A DNA stretch of 64,000 bases, taken from positions 189,859 to 253,858 of the forward strand of contig CAXXRD010000005.1 of assembly GCA_963663895.2 (NCBI GenBank), written 5' to 3'. Shown here one piece after another: positions 16,244 to 35,427 of this stretch; the first letter of the stretch is position 1, and each line of letters starts with the position of its first letter. A program made the translations under genes and the position numbers. Origin of the DNA: Dehalococcoidia bacterium. GTDB lineage: Bacteria; Chloroflexota; Dehalococcoidia; Bin125. The notes under the pieces are model-generated. The model was not told where the DNA came from and made no database searches. It was given only the letters and a program-made list of their open reading frames with translations.

Positions 16244-16319
16244 GCCCCCGTAGCTCAGCCGGATAGAGCGTCGGCCTCCGGAGCCGGAAGCGCAGGTTCG
16301 AGTCCTGCCGGGGGTACCA
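16244..16319 (+). tRNA. tRNA-Arg(CCG)
   Basis: Full cloverleaf GCCCCCG...CGGGGGT-A-CCA, anticodon loop CT-CCG-GA, T loop TTCGAGT. Confidence 0.97.
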
Positions 16320-17958: not shown

Positions 17959-17961
17959 CAG

Positions 17962-19350
17962 CTATTCCTTTACCAACAGCAAGATGTGCTCCTTGCGGGC
18001 CCGGCGTGCGGCGTGGATCATTGAACGTTTCCTTGGGTGAATTACCCGGCCGACGCATGCGATGGTGCGGAGACCAAGCCGCCGGGAGACTCCAGAGAGC
18101 ACTACAGCGTTGTTCACGAGCCTGCCACCAAACACGGAGTCCCCAACTACGAAGGCAATCGGCCGTCTAGGCTGCAGGCAGGTCATGACTGAGGCGAGAC
18201 ACTCCCTGAGGTCGTCCTGGTAGATGCTGATGGCGTTCGCCTGACCTTGGTGGTTTAGGTGAGAGCCAATCTCCGCCTCGCGAACCTGCTTTGGGTCGAA
18301 TCCGAGCCAATAGAGGCGGTGGCGGTGGTACAAGTGGTAGTCGAAAGCGTTGGCATAGGGTGGGGAGGTGATGACTGCGTCCACGAGCCCGATTTCACTG
18401 GCGTCAAGTTGACGAGCATCCCCGACAAGGGCTGTGGCCGCCGAGGATGAAGCGCCCCTTAGCCACCCGCGGTGCATCCGCACGGTATGCATCAGCTTTT
18501 CCCGAAAGCGGCGGAGGACATCGCCAACTTCGACGGTCTTCGCCCTCGCCGTGTAGCGCGTCTCGGAGTCCTGATTGGAAGCTTGGACGAGGATGGCTGA
18601 GAAGCATGCCCGCGCCACTGTAGCTGCGGACGGATGAGCCAGCTCGTCAACCCTCGCTAGGATCATGCCCAGCTCATGCATCGCCTGGGGCGTGAACCAA
18701 CGTTCTCGATTCGGGATCTGTGGAGGGGTAACTGGTGCGATGTCCGGTGTGACTGTTGCCATGAGGATTGGCTGGCCGGTGATGCGGGAGATATCCGCCT
18801 CAACAGCCTTGTCGAGCCCATCCAGGGCACTAAAGCCGGGACTATCCAGAACAAGGGTCTTGGCTAGCGATGCAAGAACCGCGACAGGGTTTGAATCGAT
18901 CCCGATGCTGCTTCGGCCGAGAGCCCTTGCTTCGACCAAGGTAGTGCCCGATCCGCAGAAGGGGTCAAGGACCGTATCTCCTGGACTCGTGAGGACGTTG
19001 ATCAGCCGGCGCGGGATTTGGGGGGGAAACTTGGCCGGATAGGGGTGGAGATTGTGGGTCCATTCGTCGGTCCGCTCGTCCTCGAACGCCCAGTCGGAAT
19101 CATCGAGGATGCGCTTCCACTCGCGCTCAGAGTCATCCCTGGGTTCGTCAAGGGGAACTTCATCGTGATGCTCTTCAGCAGACTGCTGCGCGAGCCACGC
19201 CTCCAGAGCGGCGGGCTCATACCGAACATTCGAGCCTACCCTGACGAAAGGAATGTCCCCTCGAGTTCGGAGTCGCCAGAGCGTCGTCCGAGACACCCCC
19301 AGAATATCTTCGACCTCAGCCTCTGTGAGGAGATGATCTGGGTGAAACAT
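17962..19350 (-). CDS. HTH (excisionase/MerR-like)-fused DNA methyltransferase, probably N4-cytosine (M1)
   Basis: N-terminal LLTEAEVEDILGVSRTTLWRLR HTH; THNLHPYPAKF, DPFCGSGT, ITSPPY. Confidence 0.88.
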   Translation of the reverse strand: MFHPDHLLTEAEVEDILGVSRTTLWRLRTRGDIPFVRVGSNVRYEPAALEAWLAQQSAEEHHDEVPLDEPRDDSEREWKRILDDSDWAFEDERTDEWTHNLHPYPAKFPPQIPRRLINVLTSPGDTVLDPFCGSGTTLVEARALGRSSIGIDSNPVAVLASLAKTLVLDSPGFSALDGLDKAVEADISRITGQPILMATVTPDIAPVTPPQIPNRERWFTPQAMHELGMILARVDELAHPSAATVARACFSAILVQASNQDSETRYTARAKTVEVGDVLRRFREKLMHTVRMHRGWLRGASSSAATALVGDARQLDASEIGLVDAVITSPPYANAFDYHLYHRHRLYWLGFDPKQVREAEIGSHLNHQGQANAISIYQDDLRECLASVMTCLQPRRPIAFVVGDSVFGGRLVNNAVVLSGVSRRLGLRTIACVGRVIHPRKRSMIHAARRARKEHILLLVKE

Positions 19351-19398
19351 GGGGAAACGATAGTCGCAGTGTGAGGAACCGTCAAGACGAGTCCGTGT

Positions 19399-20607
19399 TC
19401 AGACCCACCCCATCCTGCGCGCCCGTGGCTTACCACCGGATGGCAGTGTCTGGTCGCACCGCGTAATCCACTTCCGGTAGCCAGGGGAACCTTCCGGGTG
19501 GACCTCCATCTCGTAGTTCGTCCCCTGCTCCAAGCCTTCGTCGGCATGGCGAATGAGGAGGAGAGAGTACGGAGGAATGTACTGACGCAGCTCCTGACCA
19601 ACAGTCATCCGTACGTCGGCGTTGTGGTATTTCATGATCTCAGGCCGAATCGTGGTCTTCTCAGCAACCTTGCCTGTGCTGTCGAAGGCAACGAATCGTA
19701 CAGTCGGGTGAGGATCCATCTTAGGGTAGGGTTTGTTGCCGGCGACTTTTGGAGTCGTTTGTCCAGACCAAGGCCACCCAAAGAATCCGGGGTTTTGGTC
19801 AATGGCCCTGGCGCTGAGAAAAACCTCAGAGTTGGGTCTTGGTACAACCTCGATCAGCAACACTGAGGCGATGGCACTGAATCCGCTCGCGGCACTCTCA
19901 TGTGTCCTCAAAAACCCTTTGTTTGTGTGTGCGGGTATCGCAGACGGTGGCGCAATCCCAGAGGTCCTGAATGGAAGCTGGGCCTCCCGCTCCTCGGTGC
20001 CTCCGTGCTCGCCACGCTCAACCCGTGACCGCGCTTGAATCGCCCGTTCTGGCTCAACGAGCCCTGCGCTGACCAGCTCGTCTATCAGTTCCGTATCCAG
20101 TGCAGCCGCGCTCGGCGAAGCGGAAGGCAGCATCGCAGACCACGCGACGTCGAATTGGGACCACTGCTCAGACTCCGCGGGAAGGGAAAACTCAAAGGCA
20201 ACCCCCGCTTCGTAGTTAAGCTCCAGTCCACCGAGAGTCAGGTTGTGGGAGCCGACAAGTGCTTGCGCTTCGGTAGCACCGTCGAACAAGTACAGTTTCG
20301 GATGGAAAGTCACGCTCGGATTCGGTTCGTAAAGGACACTCACCGCATCGAAGCGATCAAGCAGCAGGCGGAGTGCTTCCTCGCTGGTCCCACGATGGTC
20401 GATTCCAATAATGGCTTCCGCGCGACCACCCCGGGCACGGAACTCGTCAACGGCCTGGATGATTCGGACGACACCAGCCTTGCGAGCAAAGGCAACTGCG
20501 ACCCGAGCTCGTGTGAACCTCTCGTCGTGGAGGTAACCAGCTACGAACTCTCGTGCCCGAACCTTGCCGGCCGGCGCCTCATGAGGGGCAAGAAGCTTGA
20601 AGTTCAC
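19399..20607 (-). CDS. Phospholipase D (HKD)-family restriction endonuclease
   Basis: VAFA...GID...TS..AL, FHPKLYLF, VGSHNLTLGGL..NYEAG; separate C-terminal putative recognition domain; start uncertain (GTG 20607 or ATG 20691). Confidence 0.82.
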   Translation of the reverse strand: MNFKLLAPHEAPAGKVRAREFVAGYLHDERFTRARVAVAFARKAGVVRIIQAVDEFRARGGRAEAIIGIDHRGTSEEALRLLLDRFDAVSVLYEPNPSVTFHPKLYLFDGATEAQALVGSHNLTLGGLELNYEAGVAFEFSLPAESEQWSQFDVAWSAMLPSASPSAAALDTELIDELVSAGLVEPERAIQARSRVERGEHGGTEEREAQLPFRTSGIAPPSAIPAHTNKGFLRTHESAASGFSAIASVLLIEVVPRPNSEVFLSARAIDQNPGFFGWPWSGQTTPKVAGNKPYPKMDPHPTVRFVAFDSTGKVAEKTTIRPEIMKYHNADVRMTVGQELRQYIPPYSLLLIRHADEGLEQGTNYEMEVHPEGSPGYRKWITRCDQTLPSGGKPRARRMGWV

Positions 20608-20906
20608 GGCCGTCTGGCATCCAGTGGGGCTGCGATTCTCACGTGCGGCGCATTTTGACACACTCAGACGGTGGTAGTCCGGTCCCTGCATGGGTTGCAG
20701 CCCCTATGTGGGGCTCGTGTCAGGTCCCCTTCCTACGGAGACCCGAAGTACGCTCAGAACGAGAGCTTTACGTAGAATCGGGCGCATCTCTTTTCGCACG
20801 AGCGCGTCGTCATGCCGATGTCTCTGCTGTGCTAGGGGGATGACACAGCCTGTTTCGGGCGGACCGGCTGAACACCAGGATCTAGGTGCCTGGCTACAGA
20901 GCCATG

Positions 20907-20948: not shown

Positions 20949-21010
20949 ATGTGGACTGTGGGAGTAATTGGCTCTGGTGGCCGAAGCGGATTGTGGTCGC
21001 CTGGACGACG

Positions 21011-21580
21011 CTAGATCTGCCCGTAGCGGGAGCAGCTTGTGAGGTGGTCGTTCACGAGGCCGGCGGACTGCATGAAGGCGTAGCAGATCGTCGGGCCGAC
21101 GAAGGAGAAGCCGTAGCGGCGCAGCGTCTTGCTCATGGTGCGTGACTCGTCTGTCTGCGCTGGCAGGTCGGCGAGGCTGAGGAAGGCGTTGCGGCGGGAC
21201 TCGCCCTTGACGAAACTCCAGAGGAAAGCGTCGAGGGAGCCCTGCTCGGCCTGCACGGCGAGCGTCGCGCGGGCGTTGGCGATGGCGGCGGCGATCTTGG
21301 CGCGGTTGCGGATGATGCGGGCGTCGCCGCGGAGCCGTTCGCAGTCGGCATCGTCGTAAGCAACGACGGTCGCGATGTCGAAGCCGTCGAAGGCGGCGCG
21401 GTAGCCCTCGCGCCTGTGGAGAACGGTGCGCCAGGAGAGCCCCGCCTGCGCCCCTTCGAGGACGAGGAGCTCGAAGAGAGCGCGGTCGTCGCGGATGGGG
21501 ACGCCCCACTCTTCATCGTGGTAGCGCTGCATGAGGGGGTCGTCGCCGGCCCACGCGCAGCGGGTGAAGAGATCGGTCAC
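21011..21580 (-). CDS. tag: DNA-3-methyladenine glycosylase I
   Basis: RCAW, YHDEEWG, LEGAQAGLSW, IIRNRAKI, FVGPTICYAFMQ, NDHL..C. Confidence 0.97.
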   Translation of the reverse strand: MTDLFTRCAWAGDDPLMQRYHDEEWGVPIRDDRALFELLVLEGAQAGLSWRTVLHRREGYRAAFDGFDIATVVAYDDADCERLRGDARIIRNRAKIAAAIANARATLAVQAEQGSLDAFLWSFVKGESRRNAFLSLADLPAQTDESRTMSKTLRRYGFSFVGPTICYAFMQSAGLVNDHLTSCSRYGQI

Positions 21581-21739
21581 GGCGGGAGAGGGTAGCAGGG
21601 CGTACGAGGGCGACGCTTACGATCCGCACACACCCGGCAGGGCCAGGAGGCCAACCTGTCAGAAGACGCTACGCCGACTAGCCAGCAGCCAACGACGGTG
21701 GTAGGACAGGAGGCCATGGCAGCCAGCGGGAGAGGGCCC

Positions 21740-23098
21740 ATGCCACGGCGCATTGCCATTGTTGGTGGCGGCATTTCAGGGCTGGGCGCCGCCTGGGCGC
21801 TGTATCACCACCCGGACCGTTTTGATTTTCGGCTGTTCGAGGCGCGGGAACAGGTTGGCGGCAATGCGATTACCGCTGATATGCCGCAGGATGACGGCAG
21901 CTCGATTCCCTTCGACATCTCTGTCACCGCTTGTATCCCGTCGGTCTATCACCACGTTCTGCTGCTGATGGAAAAGTTCGGCATCGAGCTGATCGATACC
22001 CGGTTCAGCTACAGCGTGAAGTACGGCGGGCAGGTCTACGCCCACGATTTCGATTCCGAGATCAGGGAGCAGCTGCAAGCGGAGATCGCGAGGTTCCAGC
22101 GAGTCTTGAGATGGTTGCATTGGTTTGGTTGGCTGAGCCGCTCCCAATCGAAGTTGCTGAACGCCCTCAATCCGTTCAATTACCTCAGCATGGGGACGAT
22201 CCTGAATCTGGGAGGATTTTCTGGAGACTTCCGCTACAAGATTCTGAAGCCTATGTTCGTCAATTTCCTGATGGCGACGAACGTATTCGATATGCCTGCG
22301 GCGCTCTTCGCGAGGTATCTCGAATTCTTCGATATCGAAACCGCGACGCCCATGCGGACCTGGGACCAGGGAACGCGACGCATCTACGAAAACTTAGCGG
22401 CCAACTTTCGGGACAAGATCTACCTCAACCGGCCCGTCCGAAAGGTGTACCGGCGGGCGTCCCGCGTCGTAGTCGAGGACGAGGACGGCGTACGGGAGAC
22501 GTTCGACCAAGTGGTGTTCGCCTGCAATGCGAACCAGACGCTGATGATCCTCGACAACCCCACGCTTCTTGAGCGCTATATCCTCTCGTCGATCCGCTAT
22601 GAGAGTGAACTTCACAACCACGCGGTCGTCCACTCCGACGCCTCAGTCCTGCCGGACAACGAGGTGAAGCCCCTGACAACGCGGAGCACGCATGTCGAGC
22701 AGTACGGCGCGAGACCGGACAACTATGAGATCACATACATCATGCACAACCAGCAACCATGGGCGAATCGGTCCGATAAGCCTTGTCTGGTGACCTACAA
22801 CCCGATCAGCTCCATTGATGAACGAAAGATCGTCAAGAGGTGGTGGTTTCAGCACATCGTCCATGACGTGCGCCACGTGGTATTGCTCGTCAACTTGTTC
22901 CGCTTCATTCAGGGCAAGAGGCGCACGTGGCACTGTGGCGCTCACACGCTGATCAACAGCCAGGAAACCTGCCTCGTTACCGGGCTCGCCACTGCCAGAC
23001 AGATCGGCGCCGACTACCCCTTCGACGATCCTGCGGCGAAGCGGTCGTTCAACTATTACGGGAGCATCATGTACGGCTCGCGATTCCGGAAGGCGTAG
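21740..23098 (+). CDS. FAD-dependent oxidoreductase (COG2907/amine-oxidase-like, possible lipid desaturase/reductase)
   Basis: IAIVGGGISGLGAAW, LFEA..QVGGNA.T, FDQVVFAC, QGKRRTWHCGA; alternative start 21716. Confidence 0.82.
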   Translation: MPRRIAIVGGGISGLGAAWALYHHPDRFDFRLFEAREQVGGNAITADMPQDDGSSIPFDISVTACIPSVYHHVLLLMEKFGIELIDTRFSYSVKYGGQVYAHDFDSEIREQLQAEIARFQRVLRWLHWFGWLSRSQSKLLNALNPFNYLSMGTILNLGGFSGDFRYKILKPMFVNFLMATNVFDMPAALFARYLEFFDIETATPMRTWDQGTRRIYENLAANFRDKIYLNRPVRKVYRRASRVVVEDEDGVRETFDQVVFACNANQTLMILDNPTLLERYILSSIRYESELHNHAVVHSDASVLPDNEVKPLTTRSTHVEQYGARPDNYEITYIMHNQQPWANRSDKPCLVTYNPISSIDERKIVKRWWFQHIVHDVRHVVLLVNLFRFIQGKRRTWHCGAHTLINSQETCLVTGLATARQIGADYPFDDPAAKRSFNYYGSIMYGSRFRKA

Positions 23099-23176
23099 CG
23101 CTGGATGCCATGGAACCTCCGCGGCCGGAGATCATCCGAGCGGGGAGCGCGTCCGTCCTGGAGTCGTAACATGAGG

Positions 23177-24232
23177 CTATGTCGTCGATGTGGAGTCCCC
23201 GTAATCGCTCAGATCGGGATAGAACTGGGCGCAATAAGCTCGAAAGGTCCGCATCTCCCCATCGGAGCGGCAGAGGCGCGGATGGGAGAGGTACTGTTTG
23301 CGGCCCCAGATCACCACGTCCTGCAGCACGTCATGCTTCTGCTGCAGCGACATGAACTTGTTCATGAGGGGCGCGCGCAGCCTCCGCGGCAGAAATCCCA
23401 GACCGACAATCCGCCGCCTCGGGTTGCGTATCTCCCGCACCTGCGAGACCAGCGACAGGTCGATGAGCGTGCCGTCGACCGGCGTCGCCAATACCCACAG
23501 ACGCAGATCCATGTCGATCGAACGCTCGTGGATCTCCACGAACGAGTAGCCCAGCCCATAGATGCGGGCTTTGGCGGAGATGTCGAAGTTGAGGGTCATG
23601 ATTCCGGCGATCCGCCGGGATGACCGGAAGTCGAAGCCGGTCTTGAGCAAGGGACCGTCCACCGCTACCGGATCGACGCCGCCCACATTGTCGTATCCGT
23701 GGACGTAGCGAAGGTGAGCCAGATCCACGGAGTTCTCCGTGGTCTCCTGGGGATGGCCGGGGAAGCGCAGGGTTTGGATCTTGAAGTCACTCCAGCCGGC
23801 CTGGTCCGGGTCCGCAGGCAGGTGCCATTGCGGCGCTCGGCCCTCGATCCCCCACCAGGCGAAGATCAGGCCGTGGATCACTCGTGTCTCGAAGACTCGC
23901 AACCTCGCGGACCTGGGTGGGGCGGCGAAGGGAGTGGCGACGCATTGACCGGTAGTATCGAACTCAAAGCCGTGGAAGGGGCAGACGAGCCGGCCATCGC
24001 AAATGCGCCCCCCCGCGGCGGGTCCCAGATCGGAGCCCAGGTGCGGGCAGACGGCCTCGGCGACGCAGACGCGCCCGTTCTCTTCACTCCAGACGACAAC
24101 GTTCTCGTCCATCCAGGTCTTTTGGATGAGCTTCGCCTTCAGGATGTCCCGGCGGCTTGCGACGAAATACCATCCCTCGGGAAACAGGGAAGGGAATGGG
24201 GCGATCGCGGGTTCCCCACGCTGGGTTGGCAT
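23177..24232 (-). CDS. Rieske [2Fe-2S] non-heme iron oxygenase (Neverland/DAF-36- or KshA-like)
   Basis: FPEGWY, CPHLG...CPFHG, ENSVDLAHLRYVH, QDVVIW.RK.Y...P.LC..DG....FR.Y..QFY C-terminus. Confidence 0.88.
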   Translation of the reverse strand: MPTQRGEPAIAPFPSLFPEGWYFVASRRDILKAKLIQKTWMDENVVVWSEENGRVCVAEAVCPHLGSDLGPAAGGRICDGRLVCPFHGFEFDTTGQCVATPFAAPPRSARLRVFETRVIHGLIFAWWGIEGRAPQWHLPADPDQAGWSDFKIQTLRFPGHPQETTENSVDLAHLRYVHGYDNVGGVDPVAVDGPLLKTGFDFRSSRRIAGIMTLNFDISAKARIYGLGYSFVEIHERSIDMDLRLWVLATPVDGTLIDLSLVSQVREIRNPRRRIVGLGFLPRRLRAPLMNKFMSLQQKHDVLQDVVIWGRKQYLSHPRLCRSDGEMRTFRAYCAQFYPDLSDYGDSTSTT

Positions 24233-24407
24233 CCTTCGATACTCCTCACTCGGAATCTCGGGTTGCCGGCCTCCATTGCCAAGATACCCGTCTAGGATAC
24301 GAGAACCGCTTGCCCATCACACCCGGTCCACCCACTTGCCTGTGCGTCCCGCGTCCCCTGCGGGACGGTCATCCGTCTTTTTCCCTGCCCGGTAAGTAAG
24401 GTAGACT

Positions 24408-24456
24408 GTCCATTATGGGGAAAGTCTAAGCCGCTTAGGCTTTCCCCATAATGGAC
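24408..24456. promoter_or_regulatory. 49-bp near-perfect palindrome in the divergent Rieske/P450 promoter region
   Basis: GTCCATTATGGGGAAAGTCTAAG-ccg-CTTAGGCTTTCCCCATAATGGAC (22/23 paired); directly follows TAGACT (24402-24407). Confidence 0.75.
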
Positions 24457-26496
24457 GGGGCAAAACTCATGGCTATCGCGACGAAAGCTGGGGTCACCCA
24501 GTCGCTCAGTTTGCCCGACGAGCTCGTCCTGATGCTCCTCAACGAAGAGAGCGGCTACTTTCGCCAAATACCCGGCTGGAATTTGAACTGCGCCGTCGTC
24601 GGCGCCGTACTCGCGGAACTGTCGCTGGACTCTCGCATTGACACGGATATGGAGTCCCTGATCCTTCTGGACCAGACGGAGACGGGCGACCCGGCCCTGG
24701 ACCCCATCCTGAAGGAGATTGCAAGCGAACCAGTGCAACGGAACGCCCAGTATTGGGTTGAGCGGCTCGCTCCCCATGCGGAGTCGATCATTGATTTGAC
24801 CATGGATCGCTTGGTTGACCTGAAGATCCTGCAACGCCACGAAGGCGATTTTTGGTCGCTGGCCAGTACTGCTTGGCAGACGGATCTACTCAGCAACTCC
24901 CATGAAGGCACCGCGGCTGAGTTCGTCAGAACGCGCATCAACAGAGTGATCTTCAGCAACGAGATTCCGAGCCCGAGAGATATCATCCTTGTTTGCCTCA
25001 TCGATACGTGCGATCTCTTTCGCTTCATGTTCCAACTCGAGGACGAGTCGGAGGAACGGATCCAGCTCATCTGCAAGATGGATTTGATCGGCCGGTCCAT
25101 CGCCGAGGCGGTCTCCGTCAACATCGCCAGTCCGGCGCTTCGGCGCCCCGCCTTGACTAAGTCAATTCCGACTGTCCCGCTGCGGCGGCTCCTGCTCAAT
25201 CCCCATGCTCGCGGCGGCAATATTCCCGCACTCTTTGCGGATCTCGCCGAGAAGCACGGCCCGGTGTTCGAGATCCGCCCGCCGTTTAAGAAACCCATGA
25301 TCTTTCTGGCCGGGCCCGAGACAAATCACTGGGCACATCGGCACGGGCGGATGTACCTGAGAGCCAGGGACTATCTCCATGACTTCGAGAAGATCTATGG
25401 CGCGTCTGGACTACTGCCGGCGCTGGACGGCGCCGATCATTTTCGCTTGCGCAAGTCCCTGCAGCAGGGTTACTCGCGCGCGAGATTGGAAGGGCAGGTG
25501 GATCAGCTCTACCGTCTTGCCCGGACGCACATGGCGGATTGGACGGTTGGAGACATTGTCCCCATGGTCACCCTGTGCCGGCGTTTGATGAACGCGCAAA
25601 TCTCGCCGCTCTTAACCAGCGTGGATTCGCAGGATCTCTTCGACGATCTAGTCAAATTCAAGGACCGGGCACTCAAAACGACGCTCTTGGGGGTCATGCC
25701 CAAGTTCATGCTGCATACCCCGAGCATGAAACGCCGGGCGAAGCAGATCGACGTACTGATGGAGCGGGTCCAGAGTAGCCATACGCCCGCCCAGCGGACT
25801 GGCCGTCCTCGTGATCTTGCGGATGAGTTTCTCAGCCTGCACGCGAGCGATCCACAGTTCCTACCGGAGTCGAATCTGCGCTTCAAATTTACGGCGCCGG
25901 TGATCGCCAGCATGTACAGCGGCGATACGCTGAGCTTCGTGGTCCACGCCATGGTGTCGCAGCCTGCGTTCTACGAGAGAATCCGGAGTGAAGCCGATGC
26001 CTTGTTTGACGGCGGCGATCCGGACGGCAAGGATTTCACCCCATCCGCGATCGATGTCACTCGCCGTTTCATCATGGAGTGCCTGCGCCTGTATCCGATC
26101 ATCCCGATGTCGATTCGAAACGTGATGAATACGTGCGTGGTTGAGGACTACGAACTGCCGGAGGGGGCGCAGGTTTACGTAGCCCAAACCGCCACGCATT
26201 ACATGAGCGACGCTTTCCCGGAGCCCCTCTCTTTCGATATCGATCGCTACCTGCCTCCGCGCGGTGAACATATTGGTCCCAACTACGCCCCGTTCGGACT
26301 GGGCACGCACACATGTCTCGGCGGCCGGTGGGTGGAACTGCAAGTGGCGATCAACCTGCTGATGCTCGCGCATTACTTCACGTTCGAGCTGTCGCCCCCG
26401 AACTCCAAGCTCCGGGTCAACATGTTTCCGTCGATGTCTATCAAGAAGAAGGTGAAGTGCGTCATCGCTGAGCAGAGACGCGAGTTGAACGTCTAA
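24451..26496 (+). CDS. GPP34 (GOLPH3-like) domain-cytochrome P450 fusion
   Basis: N-terminal LSLPDELVLMLL...AVLAEL...TGDPALDPIL...WV (GPP34); ECLR (ExxR), FDIDRY, PFGLGTHTCLG heme motif; start 24451 or 24469. Confidence 0.88.
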   Translation: MDGAKLMAIATKAGVTQSLSLPDELVLMLLNEESGYFRQIPGWNLNCAVVGAVLAELSLDSRIDTDMESLILLDQTETGDPALDPILKEIASEPVQRNAQYWVERLAPHAESIIDLTMDRLVDLKILQRHEGDFWSLASTAWQTDLLSNSHEGTAAEFVRTRINRVIFSNEIPSPRDIILVCLIDTCDLFRFMFQLEDESEERIQLICKMDLIGRSIAEAVSVNIASPALRRPALTKSIPTVPLRRLLLNPHARGGNIPALFADLAEKHGPVFEIRPPFKKPMIFLAGPETNHWAHRHGRMYLRARDYLHDFEKIYGASGLLPALDGADHFRLRKSLQQGYSRARLEGQVDQLYRLARTHMADWTVGDIVPMVTLCRRLMNAQISPLLTSVDSQDLFDDLVKFKDRALKTTLLGVMPKFMLHTPSMKRRAKQIDVLMERVQSSHTPAQRTGRPRDLADEFLSLHASDPQFLPESNLRFKFTAPVIASMYSGDTLSFVVHAMVSQPAFYERIRSEADALFDGGDPDGKDFTPSAIDVTRRFIMECLRLYPIIPMSIRNVMNTCVVEDYELPEGAQVYVAQTATHYMSDAFPEPLSFDIDRYLPPRGEHIGPNYAPFGLGTHTCLGGRWVELQVAINLLMLAHYFTFELSPPNSKLRVNMFPSMSIKKKVKCVIAEQRRELNV

Positions 26497-27581
26497 CGCA
26501 CCAATGGATCACAACCCAGAGATTGGGAAGGAGATGGCCTGAGGGGTTTGCGTGCCAGGAAACAGTACAATGGCGTGAAGATTCCGGCCCTGCCGCCGGC
26601 GACATAGGCATTTGCGGTCCGATCCATCAACCTGACAACGTCCGCAGAACCCTTGGGGAACGCCCCAAGGACCTCAGCCAGCCTGGATGCCCCGATGAGC
26701 GCTTTACGGCCCAGCGGAGTTCTCCGCAAGCGCGTTGCCCGTGTTCTGTGTGTGGTTTCCATGGGTTGATACCACGGCGTGGTCAGACCGTTTCTCCTCG
26801 GCGAGACGGCACGGTCCAATCCCTCAATGACCTCGAATCCCGCCGTTACGAGCGCCCGATTCACTCCATCCATCGTCGCGATATCCTTGAGCGCGATGCC
26901 GTGCATCAGGTCCTGCTTGATGGCCCGATGCCGATTATCGTCGGGATGAAACTTGTCCGTCATGCACATTTCCTGACCCCAGAAGAGGGCTCCGGGCTTC
27001 AGCACCCGGTAGATCTCGGCGAACGCGCTTACCTTGTCAGGCGCATGGCACGTCGATTCGATCGCATAACCCCGGTCGAACGTGTCGTCCGCAATGGCGC
27101 CCATGTCCATGAAGCTGCACTCAAGGTAGTCGACCATGTGGTCAAGTCCCGCCTCAGCGTTCAAGGATTTCGCCTTGTCAAGCTGGAGTTTATTGTTGTT
27201 GACCCCGACGACCCTAACACCGGCCTCACGGACGACCCGGCGCATCGGGCCGCCGATCCCGCAACCGACATCGACCACCGTCATGCCTGGCGTAACCTCC
27301 AGCTTGGCGATCATCAGTCGCTGATGCCGGATCTTGGACTCCTCCAAGCTCTCCCCTGGCGATAGTGGCGCGAAGTGCAGGGATTCGCCCCAACCAAAAA
27401 CCATGAACTCGCCGCAAAGGTCGTAGTATTCCTTGACGGTTTCGGTGTGGTCGTAGCCCAGTGCGCCAGCCTCCTCTGTGGACATTCTGTCGGTCCATCC
27501 ATCAAAGCGTTGCACGCGACGGGCGACACTCGACCCTTGATACGCGACCTTCAAGCCTTTTCCTAGCTTGCGGAGTTGCAT
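26493..27581 (-). CDS. Sterol 24-C-methyltransferase-like (ERG6/SMT family)
   Basis: YYD...FGWGESLHFAP, DVGCGIGGP, GVNNN, YAIESTCHAP, YRVLKPG, GIFTPLY..ARKP: all SMT regions incl. the C-terminal domain. Confidence 0.88.
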   Translation of the reverse strand: MQLRKLGKGLKVAYQGSSVARRVQRFDGWTDRMSTEEAGALGYDHTETVKEYYDLCGEFMVFGWGESLHFAPLSPGESLEESKIRHQRLMIAKLEVTPGMTVVDVGCGIGGPMRRVVREAGVRVVGVNNNKLQLDKAKSLNAEAGLDHMVDYLECSFMDMGAIADDTFDRGYAIESTCHAPDKVSAFAEIYRVLKPGALFWGQEMCMTDKFHPDDNRHRAIKQDLMHGIALKDIATMDGVNRALVTAGFEVIEGLDRAVSPRRNGLTTPWYQPMETTHRTRATRLRRTPLGRKALIGASRLAEVLGAFPKGSADVVRLMDRTANAYVAGGRAGIFTPLYCFLARKPLRPSPSQSLGCDPLVR

Positions 27582-27714
27582 GAGATCCCCTTTCAAAACA
27601 GCTAAGGCGAGCGGATTGTTCGCCGGAGACCCGACTGAGCGGCATCCGTGCCGTGGCCGAGGCCGGCTAGACCATTGAGGTCGTCGGCCGGTAGCGGTGT
27701 TCCCCTACGATCGC

Positions 27715-30198
27715 CTACGACGAGGCCTGTTCCTGCTCGTGGCGTTGATGGACTTGCTCGATCACCACGTCAAGCTCCTCCGCCATACGCTCCGCCATCG
27801 AGCGGAGCCGCGCGTTCTGGTACGCGCCCCAGACCGTCATCGCGGGCGGGACGACCAGGATGGCGACGATCAGCGAATAGGCGATCGTGATCGCCGCCGT
27901 GATGCCGAACTGCTGGAACGCCAGCAGCGGCGAGGCCACCAGTACTCCTAACCCGAGCGCCGTCGTGAGCCCGGAGCCCAACAGCGCCGAGCCCGTGGTC
28001 GAAAGCGTCCGGATCGCCGCCTTCTCCGGGTTGCGCAGGCGCGCGAACTCCTCCCGGTAGCGATGAATCACATGGATCGTGTAGTCCACCCCGATCCCGA
28101 TCGAGAGCGCCGTAATGATCGAGGTGACGAGGGTGTAGGGAATACCCAGCAGCGCCATCGTGCCCAGCACCCAGATGAGGACGAATACGATCGGGCCCAC
28201 CGCGATGATGGCCAGCACGGGTTGGCGCAGCGTCAGCCAGAAGAAGATGGCGAGGATGCCGAGGGCCAGCGCAATGGTCGCGCTGATCGACTCTGTCTGT
28301 CGGCTCGTGATCTCGTCCGTGACCGTAACCGCGGTGATACTCGACGAAGTCGCCGTGATCGCATGGTCGTCGCCCAACCAGAGCGCGTCGATCTCCTCCT
28401 GGATCCGCTCCGTTTCCTCGGGATCGTCCGTATAGGCCGGGAACTGGAGCAGCATTGCGTCAATGCCCTCTGGGTCGTTGATCAAAACATGCGCGACGGC
28501 GGGATCCCTCGCCTCCAGCTTGTCGAGGAGCTCCTGCATCAGCGCTGAATCGAGCTCTACTCCCACCGAGGCTTCCCGGAAGAGCGCGGCGAGCTCCGGG
28601 TCGTATTTGTCGCCGGGCTCCCCGCTGTCGTTGGTCCAGTCACGTACGAGCAACTCGTACGATGCCAGAATCGGTCCCGCTGCCGCCCGGGGGCGGCGCC
28701 GTTCGTCCTCAAAGGCGGTCGTGAGATCCTGCAGGTTCAGAAGCGTGCGGGTCTCGGTGGCCTCGGCCTTCACGAGGACGCTGGCCATCTCCGTTGAGCC
28801 GCCGACGGCTGCGTCGAGGGTCTCCATGTCTTCCACCACGCTCCCGTCACTGGGCAGGATGTCGCGGATGCTGAATTCCGATTTGAGCCCCGTGGCCGCG
28901 AACCCGAGCCCGATCGTCGCCGCGACCACGACGACGAAGTAAGGTGCTGGCCTGCGTGCGGCCCCCGCTCCCAGCAACTCCGCCCCCCGTTTGATTCCGG
29001 GCAGGGCGTTCGCGATCGGGCGGGGCGGTTTCAGCGTGCCCCGTGACTCGCGCCGCCGGTCGATGATCGTCCGCGCGGCCGGGAGCAGCGTCAGCATCAC
29101 GATCAGGCTCATCCCCACACCCAGCCCCGCGACGATGCCGAAGTCGCCGATCACGCCGATAGGGGAGAACAGATTCGCCAACAGACTCACGATCGTCGTG
29201 ACAGCGGCGAGCGTGAGCGGGGCGGCGACGTTTCGCAGTCCCCTCCGGACCGCTCCCCGCACCGGCTCGCCGGCAGCGCGCTGCTCGCGGTAGTGCGAGA
29301 CGGCCTGAATCGCATAGTCCACGGTGAGGCTGATCATGATGATCGGCACTACCACTGTGAGCGAACTGGGCGGGCCGATCAGACCCAGCGCATCCGGCCC
29401 AAGCCAGCCCTCCGCCCCGATGATCCAGATCACCGCAATCAGTAGCCCCCCCAGGGTGAGCAGCAGATCGGAGAGCGATCGCATGAAGACCAAGATCAGC
29501 GCTGCGATCAGCAGCAGCGCCACCCCAATCAGCTGCTGCATCCCCTGCTCCGTGGCCTCCTTGTACTCATCTTCAACCACCACGGGCGACACGCTGCTCA
29601 CGCGCAGCAGACCCTCGTCCCCGGCCGCCAGATCGCTGATCTTCCGTTCGGCGTCCTGAATTCTCTCGTCGTCCGTGTCACGCAGGCGGATGGTGGCGAT
29701 GGCGACCGGCGTGCCGTCCGTGTCGGTTCCCGTCATCCCGGCGAGCGCCCCATCGATCTCCGGGGCGCTGCGGGCGGAGTCGATCTCGGCCTGCGTGACC
29801 GACTCGAAGCCGTCCACTCGGAGAAGGTCCTTGATCAGCGACGTCGGTGTGGCAATGGGATCGGCAGGCGCCAGTAGCTCCCTTACGCTTGGGTCGCTAA
29901 CGATCGCATCGACCAGGGTGTCCATCTGAGAGAGTCCGGCGGGCGTGAGCGCCTCCCCGCGGAAGACGAGCGTGACAACACGGACCTCGCCGGAGTCCCC
30001 AAAGCGCGCATCGATCTCCTCAATCGCCTCGGCGACGGCGTTCCCTGGGGGAAGGAACGCCAAGGATGCGCCCTCCACCAGTGGTGCGCGCCGCATCGTG
30101 CCCGCAGCCAGCAGAACGGTAATGATGAGGAGAACAAGGATCGTGATGTACGGGCGGGCCGTGACCAGCCGGCTCAACCTGTCGAGTACCTGATTCAT
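27715..30198 (-). CDS. MMPL/RND family lipid transporter (copy 1)
   Basis: Two repeats of TM + periplasmic loop + TM bundle; LTVDYAIQ and GIGVDYTIH motifs. Confidence 0.9.
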   Translation of the reverse strand: MNQVLDRLSRLVTARPYITILVLLIITVLLAAGTMRRAPLVEGASLAFLPPGNAVAEAIEEIDARFGDSGEVRVVTLVFRGEALTPAGLSQMDTLVDAIVSDPSVRELLAPADPIATPTSLIKDLLRVDGFESVTQAEIDSARSAPEIDGALAGMTGTDTDGTPVAIATIRLRDTDDERIQDAERKISDLAAGDEGLLRVSSVSPVVVEDEYKEATEQGMQQLIGVALLLIAALILVFMRSLSDLLLTLGGLLIAVIWIIGAEGWLGPDALGLIGPPSSLTVVVPIIMISLTVDYAIQAVSHYREQRAAGEPVRGAVRRGLRNVAAPLTLAAVTTIVSLLANLFSPIGVIGDFGIVAGLGVGMSLIVMLTLLPAARTIIDRRRESRGTLKPPRPIANALPGIKRGAELLGAGAARRPAPYFVVVVAATIGLGFAATGLKSEFSIRDILPSDGSVVEDMETLDAAVGGSTEMASVLVKAEATETRTLLNLQDLTTAFEDERRRPRAAAGPILASYELLVRDWTNDSGEPGDKYDPELAALFREASVGVELDSALMQELLDKLEARDPAVAHVLINDPEGIDAMLLQFPAYTDDPEETERIQEEIDALWLGDDHAITATSSSITAVTVTDEITSRQTESISATIALALGILAIFFWLTLRQPVLAIIAVGPIVFVLIWVLGTMALLGIPYTLVTSIITALSIGIGVDYTIHVIHRYREEFARLRNPEKAAIRTLSTTGSALLGSGLTTALGLGVLVASPLLAFQQFGITAAITIAYSLIVAILVVPPAMTVWGAYQNARLRSMAERMAEELDVVIEQVHQRHEQEQASS

Positions 30199-30424
30199 GG
30201 CGCGCATTCTAACCGAGGAGGGCACCGGAGGCGGTACCGGCCGGCGCGAGCGGCTTCGCCGGTAGGTCGAACTGCTACTGTGACTTTCCCCGTCCGCGCC
30301 GGTGTCCAGCGGCCGGGCATGTCCCTCGCCGCTGCCGCCTGGAGGTTGTCGAGGCGCCCCGCATCTCCAGCAGCCCAGCCGTCTGGGAGCTGGCCCTCCG
30401 AGGGGCGTGACCTAGTGGCTCACG

Positions 30425-30469
30425 GCCAGCCCGACCGGTCGGTCGTAGTACAGTTTCGGTCGGTGTACC
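30425..30469 (+). repeat. Dispersed att-like repeat, copy B
   Basis: GCCAGCCCGACCGGTCGGTCGTAGTACAGTTTCGGTCGGTGTACC; shares CGTAGTACAGT...GGTGTACC with copy A. Confidence 0.55.
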
Positions 30470-30633
30470 GACGCTCGCCGATGAGAATAGCGAAGGGCAT
30501 GGGAGGGGTTAAGTCGCGCAGCCGGACGGGATGCGGCGGAGCCTCGTCTTCCGCTCTACCCTTCCTGCCTCAACGCTCTCGAAGCGGGGGCGAGGTTCCA
30601 TCGATCGCTGACCCGCTTTACCCTCGGCCGCCT

Positions 30634-31359
30634 GTGAAGCTCACGATCATCGTCCCCGCTTTCAACGAAGAGAGCTACCTCGCCGCGACTCTGGATTCGA
30701 TCCAGGCCACCGCGGCGCAGTTACGCGCTCGCTCCGATGTCGACATCGAGACGATCGTCGTCGACAACAACAGCGCCGATGAGACCGCCGCCATTGCCCG
30801 GAGCAAGGGCGCGACGGTCGTGCACGAGCTGGTGCAGGGCATTGCGCGGGCTCGCAACGCCGGGGCGCGCCATGCCCAAGGGGACGTGCTCGTCTTCGTC
30901 GACGCGGACGTGATCGTGCCCTGCGCGCTCCTCGCCGCGATCCACGCGACCATGAGCGACCCGGCTTGCATCGGCGGTGGCGTGGACGTGGATTACCGGC
31001 CCCGACGCCTCTCCATCAGGCTCTACCTGTGCGCTTGGCGGCTCCTCGGCCGTCTCCTGGGGATGGGCCAAGGTGCCACGCAGTTCTGCCGGAAGTGCGT
31101 CTTTGAACGGGTCGGCGGCTACGACGAACGGGTCTGGATCGGCGAGGATGTCGACTTCTATTGGAGCCTCAAGCGTCTCGCAAGGGAAACAGGCCACTCG
31201 GTCCGGTTCATACGGAATCCGCGCGTGCGGCCATCCTGCCGCCGCTTCGACCAGTGGCCGCTGTGGAAGGTTCTGATCTGGACCAACCCGCTCTTCATCG
31301 TGGTGTTCCGCCGCCGCAAGGCCTTCTGGCAGGGCTGGTACTCGCATGCGGTACGGTAG
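30634..31359 (+). CDS. Family 2 glycosyltransferase
   Basis: IIVPAFNEE, VVDNNSADET, ARARNAGA, FVDAD, VGGYDE...GEDVD. Confidence 0.92.
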   Translation: MKLTIIVPAFNEESYLAATLDSIQATAAQLRARSDVDIETIVVDNNSADETAAIARSKGATVVHELVQGIARARNAGARHAQGDVLVFVDADVIVPCALLAAIHATMSDPACIGGGVDVDYRPRRLSIRLYLCAWRLLGRLLGMGQGATQFCRKCVFERVGGYDERVWIGEDVDFYWSLKRLARETGHSVRFIRNPRVRPSCRRFDQWPLWKVLIWTNPLFIVVFRRRKAFWQGWYSHAVR

Positions 31360-32949: not shown

Positions 32950-35427
32950 TCACTCACCAGCCGGTTGTGCGACCGCCACTTCGATTGCGCTGCTGCGGAG
33001 CCAGACTCCGACCGGCAATTCCGCCGGCAGGAACAGGAGATCGGGCGTGATGGCGCGGCCGGTCGTGTCGCGGAAGCCCAACTCGATGCGGCCGTCGGCG
33101 AGGCGCCGGGTGCGGACCTTGCCGAGCGTCTCCTCGGAGAACACGATGTCGCTGGTCACGTGCCACAGAGCGATCGGGGCATCGGCCAGCAGGAGGCGCG
33201 CGCGCGGCAGGATCTGCTGGCCGTTGGCCAACTCCACCCCGTGCTCGACACTCCCATCCTCGGTCAGCCGCGCGATGATGCGCAGCTGATGGGGTTCGGC
33301 CGGCGGGTCCAGCACTACCTCCGGCGGTTGATCCGGCGCGTGTAGCGAACCGACCTCCGGGTCGGAGGAGATCCCAAGACGGTCCAGGAAGCGCGAGTTC
33401 TCGCCGTCCCCGGAGGAAGCCGCGCAGAGCGCTGCGTCGCTCCCGAACCCGAAGAGGGGCAAGGCGGCGCGAAGCTCCGCGTCTTGCGCGTGCGGGTAGG
33501 GTTCGGCGCCGCAAGAGGCCTGTGCGGCCAGCTCATTGATCATCGCCCGGACGGCCGGGTCCTGCCAGCCCGCTTCCGCCTCCCGCGCGGCCCGGACGGT
33601 GTCGCCCGCGGCCGCCAGCGGCGCGAGGATGCGCTCCGCGTAGGCCAGCTCGCTGTGGAGCGCGACCGCCTCCGCGAACGAGATCGCCCCGCCGCCTGCG
33701 ATCCGCTCCGCAAGCGCGCTCCAGGAGGCCGACAGCGCTGCGTAATGCCGGGCTCCCCTGTCGGCCATCCGCAGCACGAGCTCCTCCACCGCGAGCGGAT
33801 TGATCGCCTCGCTCGCAGCCAGCGTCTCCTCAAGGCCGGATCGCTCGATGGCGTCTGCGTACTGCTCCGCGAACGCTTGGAACAGCGTGTCCGATGATGC
33901 GTTCGCGATGCTGATTGCCAGTGGCTCTTCGCTCGCCGTCAGGCCCGCGAGCCCGGGCCGCTCGAAGATCCCGTCCAAGAGGAGCGCATGCACGGCCGCG
34001 GCGTAGATCGCCTTGGCCCGCACTGTCTCAGCGACCTCCCCCTCGGGCTCCATGATGGCGGTGACCGTGGTGGTCACGAGCCCTTCGGCGTCGGCCGTGG
34101 CCGCGACCGCGTATTCCGAGCCGTCGATCGTGACCGTGACCGGGCCGAAGGTGGTGGGGCCGCTCACCACCCGCAGGTTCTGCCAAAGGCCGTGCCAGGC
34201 GATCTCCTCGTCGTCTGCGTCGAAAGCGAGGACGGCGACGAACACCCATGAGGGGCCTGGCCGGGAGAGAGTCATCGTGATCGGCTGCACCTCGGCCAGC
34301 GTCGTGCTGGTGGCATTGGCCAGCTCTGGGCTGGAGTGGTAGGCCACTCCGGCTTGCCAGCGGTCCTCGGACACTGAAATCGTGTTGAGCCGTTCGAACT
34401 CGCGCGGGGCGACCGCGTAGAGGATGACGCTCGTCCCCTCGGGGAGTGCCCCGCCGCCCAGGTTGCCGATCCGATAGTTGGCGGCGAAGGGCTCGCCTGC
34501 AATCACCTCGTCGGGGACAGCCGTTTCCTCGATCTTGAGGAGGAAGGTACGCTGCGCCGCTGCTTCGTCGACCAAGTGGATTCGCAGCGTGAAGTCGGCC
34601 ACCAGGGGCTGGAGGTCCCGTTCCAGATAGGTCGTGGCCTCGATCAGGTAGGGACCGGCGGGGAGGTATTGCTCGATGCGGGCGTTGCGACCCCCGCCCC
34701 CGTCGTCGTTGGCGCCGATCACGCCCGCCGTCGGCGACACCAGAGAGAGCACGGGATCCCCGTGCTCCGAGATCAGGTCGATGAGCACGCGGCCGTCCTG
34801 CGGCAGGGTGAAGGCATAGGCGTAGGCGGGGTGATCCACCACGAAGCGGGAGCCGCAGGTATCCAGCGTCCAGGTCCCCGCTGCCGTCAGGTCGACGCCC
34901 GCTTCCAGGGATCCCAGCGGGATCGCCTCACAGCCGGACACGTGACCGATGGCAAGCGCAAAGTCCGCCGGGCCGCGTCCCCGTCCTCCCACCGTGGTCG
35001 CTTCGACCAGGTAGACGCCTGGCTCCAAGTCGCGCTCTACACGGGCGTCGAGCCCGCCGGCACCATCATCATTGTCGGCGATGCGGCTGCCGTCTGCGGC
35101 CAGCAGGTAGAGGTAAGAGTCGACCTCCTCAGACATCAGGTCGATGCGGATGCGGCCCCCTTCGCTGAGCTCGAAGCGATAGGTATGGGCATCGTTCCCG
35201 GGGCGGAAGCGCGAGTCGCAGTCCTCCGTCGTCCAGCGTCCGGCCGCCGTCAGCTGGCTCTCAGGGTCCGCGTCGAGGGTGCCGAGATCACGGACCTCGC
35301 AGTCCGGATGGTCGGCCAGGACGGGACGGGCACTTGCCAGCACCCCAATCCCGGCAAGGAGGGCAATGGCGGCGAGTGCGATTCCCAGTGTGCGCAGGGC
35401 AGGCTTATCAGGCACGACATTCTCCAA
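32950..35427 (-). CDS. Secreted protein with two PPC (pre-peptidase C-terminal)-like repeats
   Basis: Signal peptide; tandem repeats Y.F.L...RI.IDL.S...D.YL.L....IA.NDDG.GG.NAR.E..L..G.Y.IEATT. Confidence 0.8.
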   Translation of the reverse strand: MENVVPDKPALRTLGIALAAIALLAGIGVLASARPVLADHPDCEVRDLGTLDADPESQLTAAGRWTTEDCDSRFRPGNDAHTYRFELSEGGRIRIDLMSEEVDSYLYLLAADGSRIADNDDGAGGLDARVERDLEPGVYLVEATTVGGRGRGPADFALAIGHVSGCEAIPLGSLEAGVDLTAAGTWTLDTCGSRFVVDHPAYAYAFTLPQDGRVLIDLISEHGDPVLSLVSPTAGVIGANDDGGGGRNARIEQYLPAGPYLIEATTYLERDLQPLVADFTLRIHLVDEAAAQRTFLLKIEETAVPDEVIAGEPFAANYRIGNLGGGALPEGTSVILYAVAPREFERLNTISVSEDRWQAGVAYHSSPELANATSTTLAEVQPITMTLSRPGPSWVFVAVLAFDADDEEIAWHGLWQNLRVVSGPTTFGPVTVTIDGSEYAVAATADAEGLVTTTVTAIMEPEGEVAETVRAKAIYAAAVHALLLDGIFERPGLAGLTASEEPLAISIANASSDTLFQAFAEQYADAIERSGLEETLAASEAINPLAVEELVLRMADRGARHYAALSASWSALAERIAGGGAISFAEAVALHSELAYAERILAPLAAAGDTVRAAREAEAGWQDPAVRAMINELAAQASCGAEPYPHAQDAELRAALPLFGFGSDAALCAASSGDGENSRFLDRLGISSDPEVGSLHAPDQPPEVVLDPPAEPHQLRIIARLTEDGSVEHGVELANGQQILPRARLLLADAPIALWHVTSDIVFSEETLGKVRTRRLADGRIELGFRDTTGRAITPDLLFLPAELPVGVWLRSSAIEVAVAQPAGE

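Follow-up and report, generated by a model that had tools for sequence, protein, structure and literature searches.

A putative sterol-tailoring and trafficking module with a GPP34-P450 fusion in a Dehalococcoidia genome in which no oxidosqualene cyclase was found

Why does a bacterium in whose genome no route to sterols was found carry a compact set of genes that appear to handle sterols? The question is raised by a stretch of 64,000 nucleotides (hereafter the window, G000:C5:189859-253858) from a Dehalococcoidia bacterium whose genome (G000) comprises 2.37 Mb in 5 contigs, is 91.38% complete and has 66.5% G+C. At positions 21740-30198 of the window, an original prediction made from the letters alone had placed five adjacent genes, namely a flavin adenine dinucleotide (FAD) enzyme, a Rieske oxygenase, a cytochrome P450 fused to a GPP34 domain, a homologue of the sterol methyltransferase (SMT) ERG6 and an MMPL-family RND transporter, and it had proposed that they take up pre-formed sterol and alkylate and desaturate it in the manner of the late ergosterol pathway. 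All five open frames are indeed present as neighbours and each is backed by a Pfam match (Table 1); the limits given lie slightly inside the longest frames (21698-30225), and the MMPL gene is followed, 118 bp downstream, by the SMT gene, with which it forms the only pair of neighbouring module genes on one strand. With moderate confidence, we read the five genes as a horizontally shared module for the tailoring and trafficking of sterols in sponge-associated bacteria, which in this genome would work on sterols of the host or the community that the cell itself does not make.

The grouping of the five genes is a conserved module and not a product of chance. One genome per prokaryotic species was scanned with the SMT alone as query, which yielded 444 carriers, and the best 80 were fetched with 10-kb flanks; these loci belong mostly to metagenome-assembled genomes (MAGs) of Chloroflexota/Dehalococcoidia, with some from Thermodesulfobacteriota/Dadabacteria, Acidimicrobiia and Binatia. 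Counting a partner as present when a tblastn match with a coverage of at least 0.5 lay within 10 kb of the SMT, we found the P450 fusion in the flanks of 56 of the 80 loci, the MMPL gene in 54, the Rieske gene in 53 and the FAD gene in 36. All four partners accompany the SMT at 32 loci, three at 18, two at 5, one at 7 and none at 18, whereas further gene families recur at 17 loci at most. Gene order differs among the loci, while the gene set remains grouped. In an evenly drawn sample of 151 genomes of the class, Sterol_MT_C was detected in 20 and the two-domain GPP34-P450 in 18, with SMT and fusion together in 16, the fusion only in 2, the SMT only in 4 and neither in 129, relatives in this sample not being independent. 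The two are found together even when they are unlinked (G049, G096, G005 and G114), and G075 has the same FAD, P450, MMPL and Rieske genes joined to a canonical-type SMT that is 40% identical to the one in the window. The prediction had been staked on the genes occurring together in other genomes, and they do, as the full set at 32 of 80 loci and the SMT with the fusion in 16 of 151 genomes both attest. The most conserved member is the FAD enzyme, with a median identity of 84% across the 36 of 80 loci that have it. Several relatives also carry broken copies: G103, G131, G059 and G075, and G060 in one of its copies, have a GPP34-P450 gene that is split in two or interrupted by a stop, G148 has a split MMPL gene, and G049 and G131 have ERG4/24 fragments that contain stops. 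This suggests that the module is being lost in some lineages.

The substrate is most likely a sterol, and in this genome most likely an exogenous one, because the module genes lie inside the de novo sterol clusters of relatives, because neither oxidosqualene cyclase (OSC), squalene epoxidase (SE), CYP51 nor SdmA was found here, and because carriers of the Dadabacteria type have neither a cyclase match nor SQS_PSY. The clearest case of such placement is a Binatia locus of about 20 kb (L075), in which genes for a KshA-type Rieske protein, a GPP34-P450 and the FAD enzyme are followed by SdmB-like (301 bits) and SdmA-like (408 bits) genes, a canonical SMT, an SMT of the window's type and a second GPP34-P450, and further on by two unknown genes, an SE-OSC fusion, a P450 that has the same position and family profile as the CYP51 of the family relative G022, and an ERG4/24 gene. 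In another relative of the class (G148), the genes for SE, OSC, MMPL and GPP34-P450 are contiguous on one strand. OSC-level matches (632-754 bits; SHC-level matches, those of squalene-hopene cyclases, score at most 301 bits) were obtained in 4 of the 151 class genomes, and the fusion is present in all 4. Two relatives from the same family, G022 and G060, carry a full de novo sterol cluster, which in G022 consists of SdmB-like, SdmA-like, ERG24, true CYP51 and SE-OSC genes. Sterols as the substrate class, which the prediction had guessed from family resemblance, thus gain support from real sterol biosynthesis clusters. Two observations on these clusters may be added. The SE and OSC domains share one frame of 1263-1269 aa, an apparent fusion, at L087:7167-10958 (G022) and L075:15427-19236 (Binatia), and G060 and G121 have long open frames around OSC. 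The Binatia cluster also encodes a protein of 275 aa that has no Pfam match (L075:13139-13966); given this position and a homologue with 60% identity in the genome of the window (G000:C1:791283-791894), the protein is a candidate for an additional part of the system.

Table 1. Positions of the module genes and of two further features in the window
Feature	Position	Strand	Size and supporting matches
FAD oxidoreductase, amine-oxidase fold, LkcE-like	21698-23098	+	466 aa; Amino_oxidase 64.5 bits
Rieske non-heme-iron oxygenase, KshA type	23177-24232	-	351 aa; Rieske 66.6 bits, KshA_C 83.5 bits
GPP34 (GOLPH3-like)-P450 fusion, 'GPP34_L' architecture	24451-26496	+	681 aa; GPP34 107.3 bits, p450 121.7 bits
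SMT homologue	26493-27596	-	367 aa (longest frame); Methyltransf_11 61.6 bits, Sterol_MT_C 57.8 bits
MMPL-family RND transporter, sterol-sensing-type domain	27715-30225	-	836 aa; MMPL 166.5 bits, Sterol-sensing 52.9 bits, Patched 46.6 bits
tRNA gene, island border	16244-16316	+	Rfam tRNA 66.9 bits
Second MMPL/sterol-sensing RND transporter	40891-43368	+	MMPL 121.8 bits, Sterol-sensing 36.2 bits

The search of the window's own genome points the same way as the placement in relatives. The Pfam family SE (PF08491) has no match in the 91%-complete assembly, and tblastn with the SE, OSC, CYP51 and SdmA proteins of relatives returned, at 22-30% identity, nothing but an SHC and genes of the module itself, the SE and OSC queries finding the SHC alone at 28-30%. 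This SHC, on contig C2 and adjoining HpnC, is the sole cyclase of the genome (TIGR01507, 832 bits against a cut-off of 431); tried as an OSC, it reached 234 bits against a cut-off of 851. Hence the predicted lack of a cyclase is true of the window and only partly true of the genome, which holds shc, while osc and sqe were not found in the 91% that is assembled; the predicted lack of a de novo sterol route, judged by OSC, SE, CYP51 and SdmA in the same assembly, holds. The pattern extends to relatives: an OSC-level match is missing from 18 of the 20 SMT-positive class genomes and any cyclase match from 9, several of which are single-contig assemblies, and G151 and G152, carriers from the Dadabacteria/Thermodesulfobacteriota, lack both a cyclase match and SQS_PSY.

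The genome might nevertheless be a de novo sterol producer like G022 and G060, with OSC, SE, CYP51 and SdmAB in the unassembled 9% or so and the module as the late part of an endogenous pathway. Three of the six other sampled genomes of the family (G022, G060 and G121) have OSC-level matches of 632-754 bits, in G022 within the full cluster described above, and an assembly that is 91.38% complete and in 5 contigs leaves some room for such a cluster. Against this stand the empty family and tblastn searches for SE, OSC, CYP51 and SdmA, the nearest relative (G155), which has only an SHC-level match of 229 bits, the single-contig family members G103 and G138, which have an SMT and only SHC-level matches, and the 18 of 20 SMT-positive class genomes without an OSC-level match, so that we hold this explanation to be improbable. 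Because G022 and G060 carry the full cluster, loss, non-acquisition and an assembly gap look alike for this one genome.

The SMT homologue belongs to its family by domain content and departs from it in Region I. The 367 aa of the longest frame compare with about 345 aa in relatives and 330 aa in the database gene call; 1886 homologues were found, and the best 120 of these are 77-100% identical. Sterol_MT_C scores 57.8 bits against a cut-off of 21.7, the class I S-adenosylmethionine (SAM) methyltransferase domain is also present, and the Region II SAM motif DxGxGxxGP appears as VDVGCGIGGP, a motif shared by 87 of the 89 SMT sequences examined. A PDB sequence search with the protein gave no SMT structure for comparison. 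Region I reads FMVFGWGESLHF, with L instead of F89 and G instead of T78, and its GWGESLHF therefore differs from the functional signature 84-GWGxxFHF-91 plus T78. These positions are among 25 residues reported to be kept in all functional SMTs (bioRxiv 10.64898/2025.12.19.695621). Because of L at 89 and G at 78, activity on the usual test substrates is doubtful, and the predicted SMT role is thus upheld by the family domains and weakened by departures at two residues that are conserved in all SMTs shown to be active. The altered region is typical of a whole group: among 79 SMT frames from the loci, 57 read GWG[EAD]SLHF, 15 read SLHF with S at 84 or 86, 5 are canonical second copies and 2 are unresolved, and the window type can be written EFMVF[G/S]W[G/S]ESLHF against TDFYEYGWGxSFHF for the canonical type. 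A quick maximum-likelihood tree likewise sets a window-type clade (78 rows) apart from a canonical clade (12 rows) with a long branch between them. Canonical and window-type SMTs lie at most 10 kb apart in 5 loci, and back to back in L075.

This divergence matters for a second explanation, in which squalene or hopanoids made by the cell itself are the substrates of the module, with the SMT methylating squalene or diploptene and the MMPL protein exporting the product as HpnN does. Squalene-methylating SMT-like enzymes are known from Botryococcus, the genome has an SHC beside HpnC, Region I of the SMT departs from the sterol-binding consensus, and the MMPL protein scores 118 bits on the HpnN model. 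However, the HpnN scores are far under the cut-offs of 752 and 1100, 9 of the 20 SMT-positive class genomes have no cyclase match, G151 and G152 carry SMT, Rieske and fusion genes with neither a cyclase match nor SQS_PSY, and the module in L075 and G148 is linked to OSC and not to SHC. We rate hopanoid or squalene modification as low in probability as an undetected de novo pathway.

The MMPL matches of the transporter fall in 2 stretches, a crude hydropathy scan shows 12 transmembrane-like segments, and its PDB matches are MmpL4/3/5, Patched, NPC1 and HpnN. Tried as HpnN, the protein scored 118.5 bits against a cut-off of 752 and 71.9 against 1100, and tried as BstA it scored 45.2 against 1400. 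The second MMPL gene of the window, 10 kb away, is a paralogue with 55% identity over 820 aa that may serve hopanoids, sterols or something else. Transporters of the RND/MMPL kind are usually exporters, and the uptake of sterol that the original prediction had assumed is accordingly unsupported.

The P450 fusion combines GPP34 (residues 21-221) and p450 (residues 254-660) in one polypeptide, with the heme-thiolate motif FGLGTHTCLG at residue 615 and the ExxR motif as ECLR at residue 543. Its P450 domain was considered as a CYP51 and rejected: it matches CYP51 structures at about 1e-18 over the C-terminal half only and is 26% identical over 232 aa to the true CYP51 of G022, which itself scores 2.5e-104. 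The whole genome has two P450s; the other one (G000:C1:492205-494317, also L084:6206-8317) is a protein of 703 aa in which the P450 model matches residues 507-672 and the first 500 residues or so have no Pfam match, so it may be another fusion. According to the paper that described it (PMC11706023), the fusion would be a secreted effector that binds phosphatidylinositol 4-phosphate (PI4P) and blocks phagosome maturation in sponge cells, in which case the neighbouring genes would be unrelated or loosely related to it. That paper reports an enrichment of GPP34 among sponge symbionts from many phyla, describes the fusion as expressed and as exclusive to such symbionts, and states that eukaryotic GPP34 binds PI4P. 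The protein predicted here, however, shows no signal peptide or transmembrane anchor in a crude hydropathy scan, a P450 requires heme and cytoplasmic redox partners, and the gene is tightly linked to those of cytoplasmic enzymes at 56 of the 80 SMT loci, contiguous with OSC in G148 and L075 and present in all four genomes with an OSC-level match. The main text of PMC11706023 contains no sterol, methyltransferase, MMPL or lipid among its terms, and the effector hypothesis was therefore, as far as that text goes, formed without the sterol context. A secreted effector thus appears very unlikely to us, and the genomic linkage points to the GPP34-P450 being a sterol enzyme.

The Rieske protein has its best PDB match in KshA (2zyl, 7.2e-24), confined to residues 12-178; its Rieske centre CPH...CPFH lies at residue 62 and its iron site D..H....H, as DLAHLRYVH, at residue 170, and it is the sole KshA_C gene of the genome. 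It was also tried as SdmA, the bacterial C-4 methyl sterol oxidase, and reached 34.4 bits on NCBIfam NF052579 against a cut-off of 600, compared with 407-408 bits for the SdmA-like proteins in G022 and L075. Least probable of all is that the module begins steroid catabolism, with a KshA-type oxygenase opening ring B and the other enzymes preparing sterols as a carbon source, since this is favoured by KshA as the best solved relative, by the KshA_C domain and by divergent KshA clusters in sponge MAGs that have been read as steroid degradation (PMC5790920), but opposed by the biosynthetic nature of a SAM-dependent side-chain methyltransferase and an ERG4/24 reductase, by the same Rieske type inside de novo sterol clusters, by the limited extent of the KshA match, and by the Chloroflexi in that source, which matched only some of 10 catabolic protein families and showed no hsaC. 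The FAD enzyme carries the dinucleotide-binding motif GGGISG at residue 23 and has its best PDB match in LkcE (2.2e-30 over residues 17-447), followed by 2b9w, titled 'putative aminooxidase'. The cofactor motifs are therefore intact in the P450, Rieske and FAD proteins, and the crude hydropathy scan showed no signal peptide or membrane anchor in the four soluble module proteins. An NCBIfam run on the five proteins gave no equivalog above its cut-off, and none of the P450, Rieske and FAD enzymes can be given a reaction, so that the late-ergosterol-like desaturation of the original prediction is left without support.

Several points weigh against a sterol-tailoring module acting on exogenous sterols. 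It is gene context alone that names the substrate, and no sterol-acting relative of the FAD enzyme was seen among its PDB or family matches, LkcE and 2b9w not being titled sterol enzymes. The module is not obligatory, as the 18 of 80 SMT loci without a partner within 10 kb demonstrate; five genomes with such a lone SMT were checked, and a full-length fusion elsewhere was found in 2, remnants in 2 and none in 1. The window-type SMT clade has L at F89 and S, G or N at T78, and some members have S at G84 or G86. According to bioRxiv 10.64898/2025.12.19.695621, 7 of 11 SMTs inactive on desmosterol and 24-methylenecholesterol deviate from the conserved set, and it is mainly because this functional signature is not kept that our confidence is not higher. 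No ferredoxin or reductase partner was found in the window, and the seven Fer2-domain genes elsewhere in the genome are not linked to the module. The SHC next to HpnC means that the genome makes squalene-derived hopanoids, and an endogenous triterpenoid is therefore available as a substrate. Finally, an OSC cluster may have been missed in this one genome, which is 91% complete and in 5 contigs.

Other genes of the genome fit a sterol-handling module. An ERG4/ERG24 homologue (127 bits) lies on C2, unlinked to the module. This family is above its cut-off in 13 of the 151 class genomes, all of module-bearing families, and its full-length low-scoring type is confined to genomes that have both SMT and fusion; near the SMT it occurs at 5 of the 80 loci. 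A pair of an LppX/LprG-type lipoprotein and an MFS transporter lies inside the cluster at 17 of the 80 loci, the next most frequent after the module genes, and such an LprG-like and MFS pair is present, unlinked, in the window's genome at C2:14545-16673.

From these parts we infer a scheme in which every reaction, product and direction of transport is a proposal. Exogenous sterols of the host or community would partition into the bacterial membrane, where the GPP34 domain may hold the P450 at the cytoplasmic face, in the way that sterol P450s of eukaryotes are held by their N-terminal anchor. Oxidation, desaturation or isomerisation of the ring system or side chain could then be the task of the P450, the KshA-type Rieske protein and the LkcE-like flavoenzyme, with electrons coming from ferredoxins and reductases encoded elsewhere. 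The SMT homologue would methylate a side-chain double bond with SAM as donor, the unlinked ERG4/ERG24-type reductase might saturate a double bond, and the MMPL protein may pass the sterol from the membrane to the envelope or exterior, or in the opposite direction, perhaps with the unlinked LprG-like lipoprotein and MFS pair.

A more specific idea, which we put forward as speculation and consider unlikely, is that the window-type SMT is the side-chain methyltransferase still missing for sponge holobionts, acting at a carbon other than C-24, for example at C-26 of delta-25 sterols such as codisterol, and that the GPP34-P450 is a membrane-docked sterol oxygenase rather than a phagocytosis effector. 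Codisterol-type delta-25 sterols have been reported as products of canonical bacterial SMTs, and the canonical and window-type SMTs at most 10 kb apart at 5 loci, together with the altered Region I and an apparent restriction of the window-type SMT and the fusion to sponge-associated lineages, are compatible with this idea and no proof of it. If this were true, C-26 methylation would lead to aplysterol-type 26-methyl sterols, the precursors of the 'sponge' biomarker 26-methylstigmastane, and genomes without OSC and canonical SMT, such as this one, would finish sterols begun by the host or by other symbionts.

The occurrence of the locus agrees with a life in sponges. The 24 sequencing runs listed comprise 20 rows from 13 studies that hold part of the 8.5-kb stretch, with labels that include sponge, coral and marine metagenome. 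In one sponge-metagenome run (X7), contigs at least 90% identical cover 29 of 30 bins. Another run, from an RNA library and labelled coral metagenome (X20), yielded 77 contigs at 90-99% identity that fall on the genes for the FAD, Rieske, SMT and MMPL proteins, among them a piece of 263 nt that differs from 23360-23622 at a single position. These contigs stem mostly from relatives and may reflect DNA carry-over, and they do not establish expression of the locus. The earlier guess that the organism is a symbiont fits the sponge-metagenome runs with their close relatives and the publication of the fusion as exclusive to sponge symbionts (PMC11706023). Close relatives also occur in runs labelled coral and marine metagenome, and hosts are not given in the record titles of the loci.

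The module also appears to have moved between lineages. SMT identity between phyla amounts to 75-78%, which points to horizontal spread; the SMT tree, for which the best 80 of the 444 loci were used with midpoint rooting, cannot give donors or the direction of transfer, and we therefore claim only high identity across phyla. The FAD, P450 and SMT genes have 58-59% G+C (57.9% for the FAD gene) against 66.5% in the genome, and this low value together with the nearby tRNA gene suggests a foreign origin of the module. In the locus of the nearest relative (L003) the order is GT2, MMPL, SMT, P450, Rieske, FAD, tRNA-Arg and ComM/ChlI, with the tRNA-Arg(ccg) gene at the module's end, about 750 bp past FAD. 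In the window the module is surrounded by housekeeping genes (RecO, MetRS, HisRS, RelA/SpoT, ComM and the pyrimidine genes CarAB, PyrB and PyrC), and it is therefore chromosomal. The FAD and Rieske genes are convergent, as are the P450 and SMT genes, and the Rieske and P450 genes diverge over 218 bp. A promoter and terminator scan of 21000-30700 was uninformative, yielding 1 promoter-like and 3 terminator-like sites where 1.6 and 5.3, respectively, were expected.

Some neighbours of the module deserve a brief description. Between the tRNA gene and the FAD gene lies a restriction-modification block (16354-20691, 58.2% G+C) with DNA methyltransferases of 534 aa and 462 aa and a PLD-family nuclease of 430 aa. 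At this position L003 has no matching restriction-modification genes, its sole match being 29% identity to the 462-aa methyltransferase, and the block is therefore a strain-specific insertion. Just beyond the module, 36573-38540 (minus strand) encodes a 655-aa protein with an Exo_endo_phos domain, while an 825-aa protein with a PPC pre-peptidase domain, encoded at 32950-35427 (minus strand), is kept among the 80 loci in L003 only. Further along, an N6/N4 DNA methyltransferase with a DUF7226 tail (49172-50512, minus strand) stands beside two genes of the metallo-beta-lactamase fold.

Sponge steranes, for example 24-isopropylcholestane and 26-methylstigmastane, serve as the oldest chemical evidence for animals, and the debate about them now hinges on whether symbiotic bacteria are able to build or alter such sterols. 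The module is present in at least 444 species-level genomes, mostly of Chloroflexota, several of which are unable to make sterols. Should the module edit sterols of the host, then host and microbes would jointly produce the sterol profile seen in a sponge, and counting OSC-bearing bacteria would underestimate the bacterial contribution. The abundant Chloroflexota of sponges would thereby be implicated in shaping the sterols of the holobiont, and the GPP34-P450, presented in 2025 as a hallmark of sponge symbiosis and then explained by phagosome manipulation, would receive a testable biochemical role. The module also offers an uncharacterised set of candidate sterol enzymes, comprising a divergent SMT, a KshA-like oxygenase, an LkcE-like flavoenzyme and an ERG4/24 variant.

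Parts of this picture are already known. Bacterial SMTs and their clustering with sterol genes in sponge metagenomes have been described (PMC10070321), as has the GPP34-P450 fusion (PMC11706023). The five-gene combination, or its presence in symbionts without OSC, was not found described in the literature searched, in which the neighbour-gene supplements of PMC10070321 and PMC11706023 may already show some of it; the original claim that the combination is uncharacterised is thus supported as to the combination, but not as to parts such as these SMTs and this fusion, which are in print.

Among the known systems, the bacterial C-24 SMTs of uncultured bacteria and sponge symbionts (Brown et al. 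2023, PMC10070321; bioRxiv 10.64898/2025.12.19.695621) share with the window SMT the Methyltransf_11 plus Sterol_MT_C architecture and the Region II motif, and those from symbiont metagenomes are sometimes clustered with sdmAB, OSC and erg genes (PMC10070321), as in L075. The window SMT differs from the tested ones in belonging to a separate deep clade, in having L at F89 and G at T78 and in coming from a genome without an OSC match, and window-type relatives vary at G84 and G86, which all SMTs tested in these sources keep. The de novo sterol clusters of Methylococcus and myxobacteria consist of SE, OSC, CYP51, ERG24 and SdmA/SdmB, as do those of G022 and L075, and module genes are embedded in that of L075. 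In contrast, none of these core genes was found in the window's genome, the module P450 is not CYP51 and its Rieske protein is not SdmA.

The BstA/BstB/BstC sterol transport system of Methylococcus capsulatus and the hopanoid exporter HpnN likewise involve RND-superfamily inner-membrane transporters with a genetic tie to a polycyclic triterpenoid pathway, and the LprG-like lipoprotein found at 17 of the 80 loci could act as a periplasmic carrier; the module MMPL protein is, however, no orthologue of BstA or HpnN and belongs to the MMPL/HAE3 branch. KshA, a 3-ketosteroid 9-alpha-hydroxylase, shares the Rieske centre and KshA_C with the module protein, but only the N-terminal half aligns and the gene context here is biosynthetic; the Neverland-type cholesterol 7-desaturases are a further comparison for this protein. 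Coxiella burnetii reportedly has eukaryote-like sterol-modifying enzymes that include the ERG4/24 family (Stmp1/CBU1206), acts with them on host sterol and has no sterol synthesis. Those are single enzymes of an intracellular pathogen, whereas here a five-gene module with unlinked accessories, including a methyltransferase, occurs in extracellular sponge symbionts of several phyla.

The closest counterpart of the fusion is GPP34_L (PMC11706023, Microbiome 2025), which has the same two-domain architecture and the same host group. According to that paper, 656 of 663 long forms are GPP34 plus P450, all of them from sponge symbionts across phyla and monophyletic, the fusion is expressed in a sponge metatranscriptome, and near short GPP34 genes only a P450 is reported. 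Unlike in that account, the fusion stands here in a conserved module with SMT, Rieske, FAD and MMPL genes and is contiguous with OSC in two relatives. What is new is therefore most likely a tailoring-only, host-dependent form of the bacterial sterol gene cluster, which links a P450 fusion reported only from sponge symbionts with sterol chemistry.

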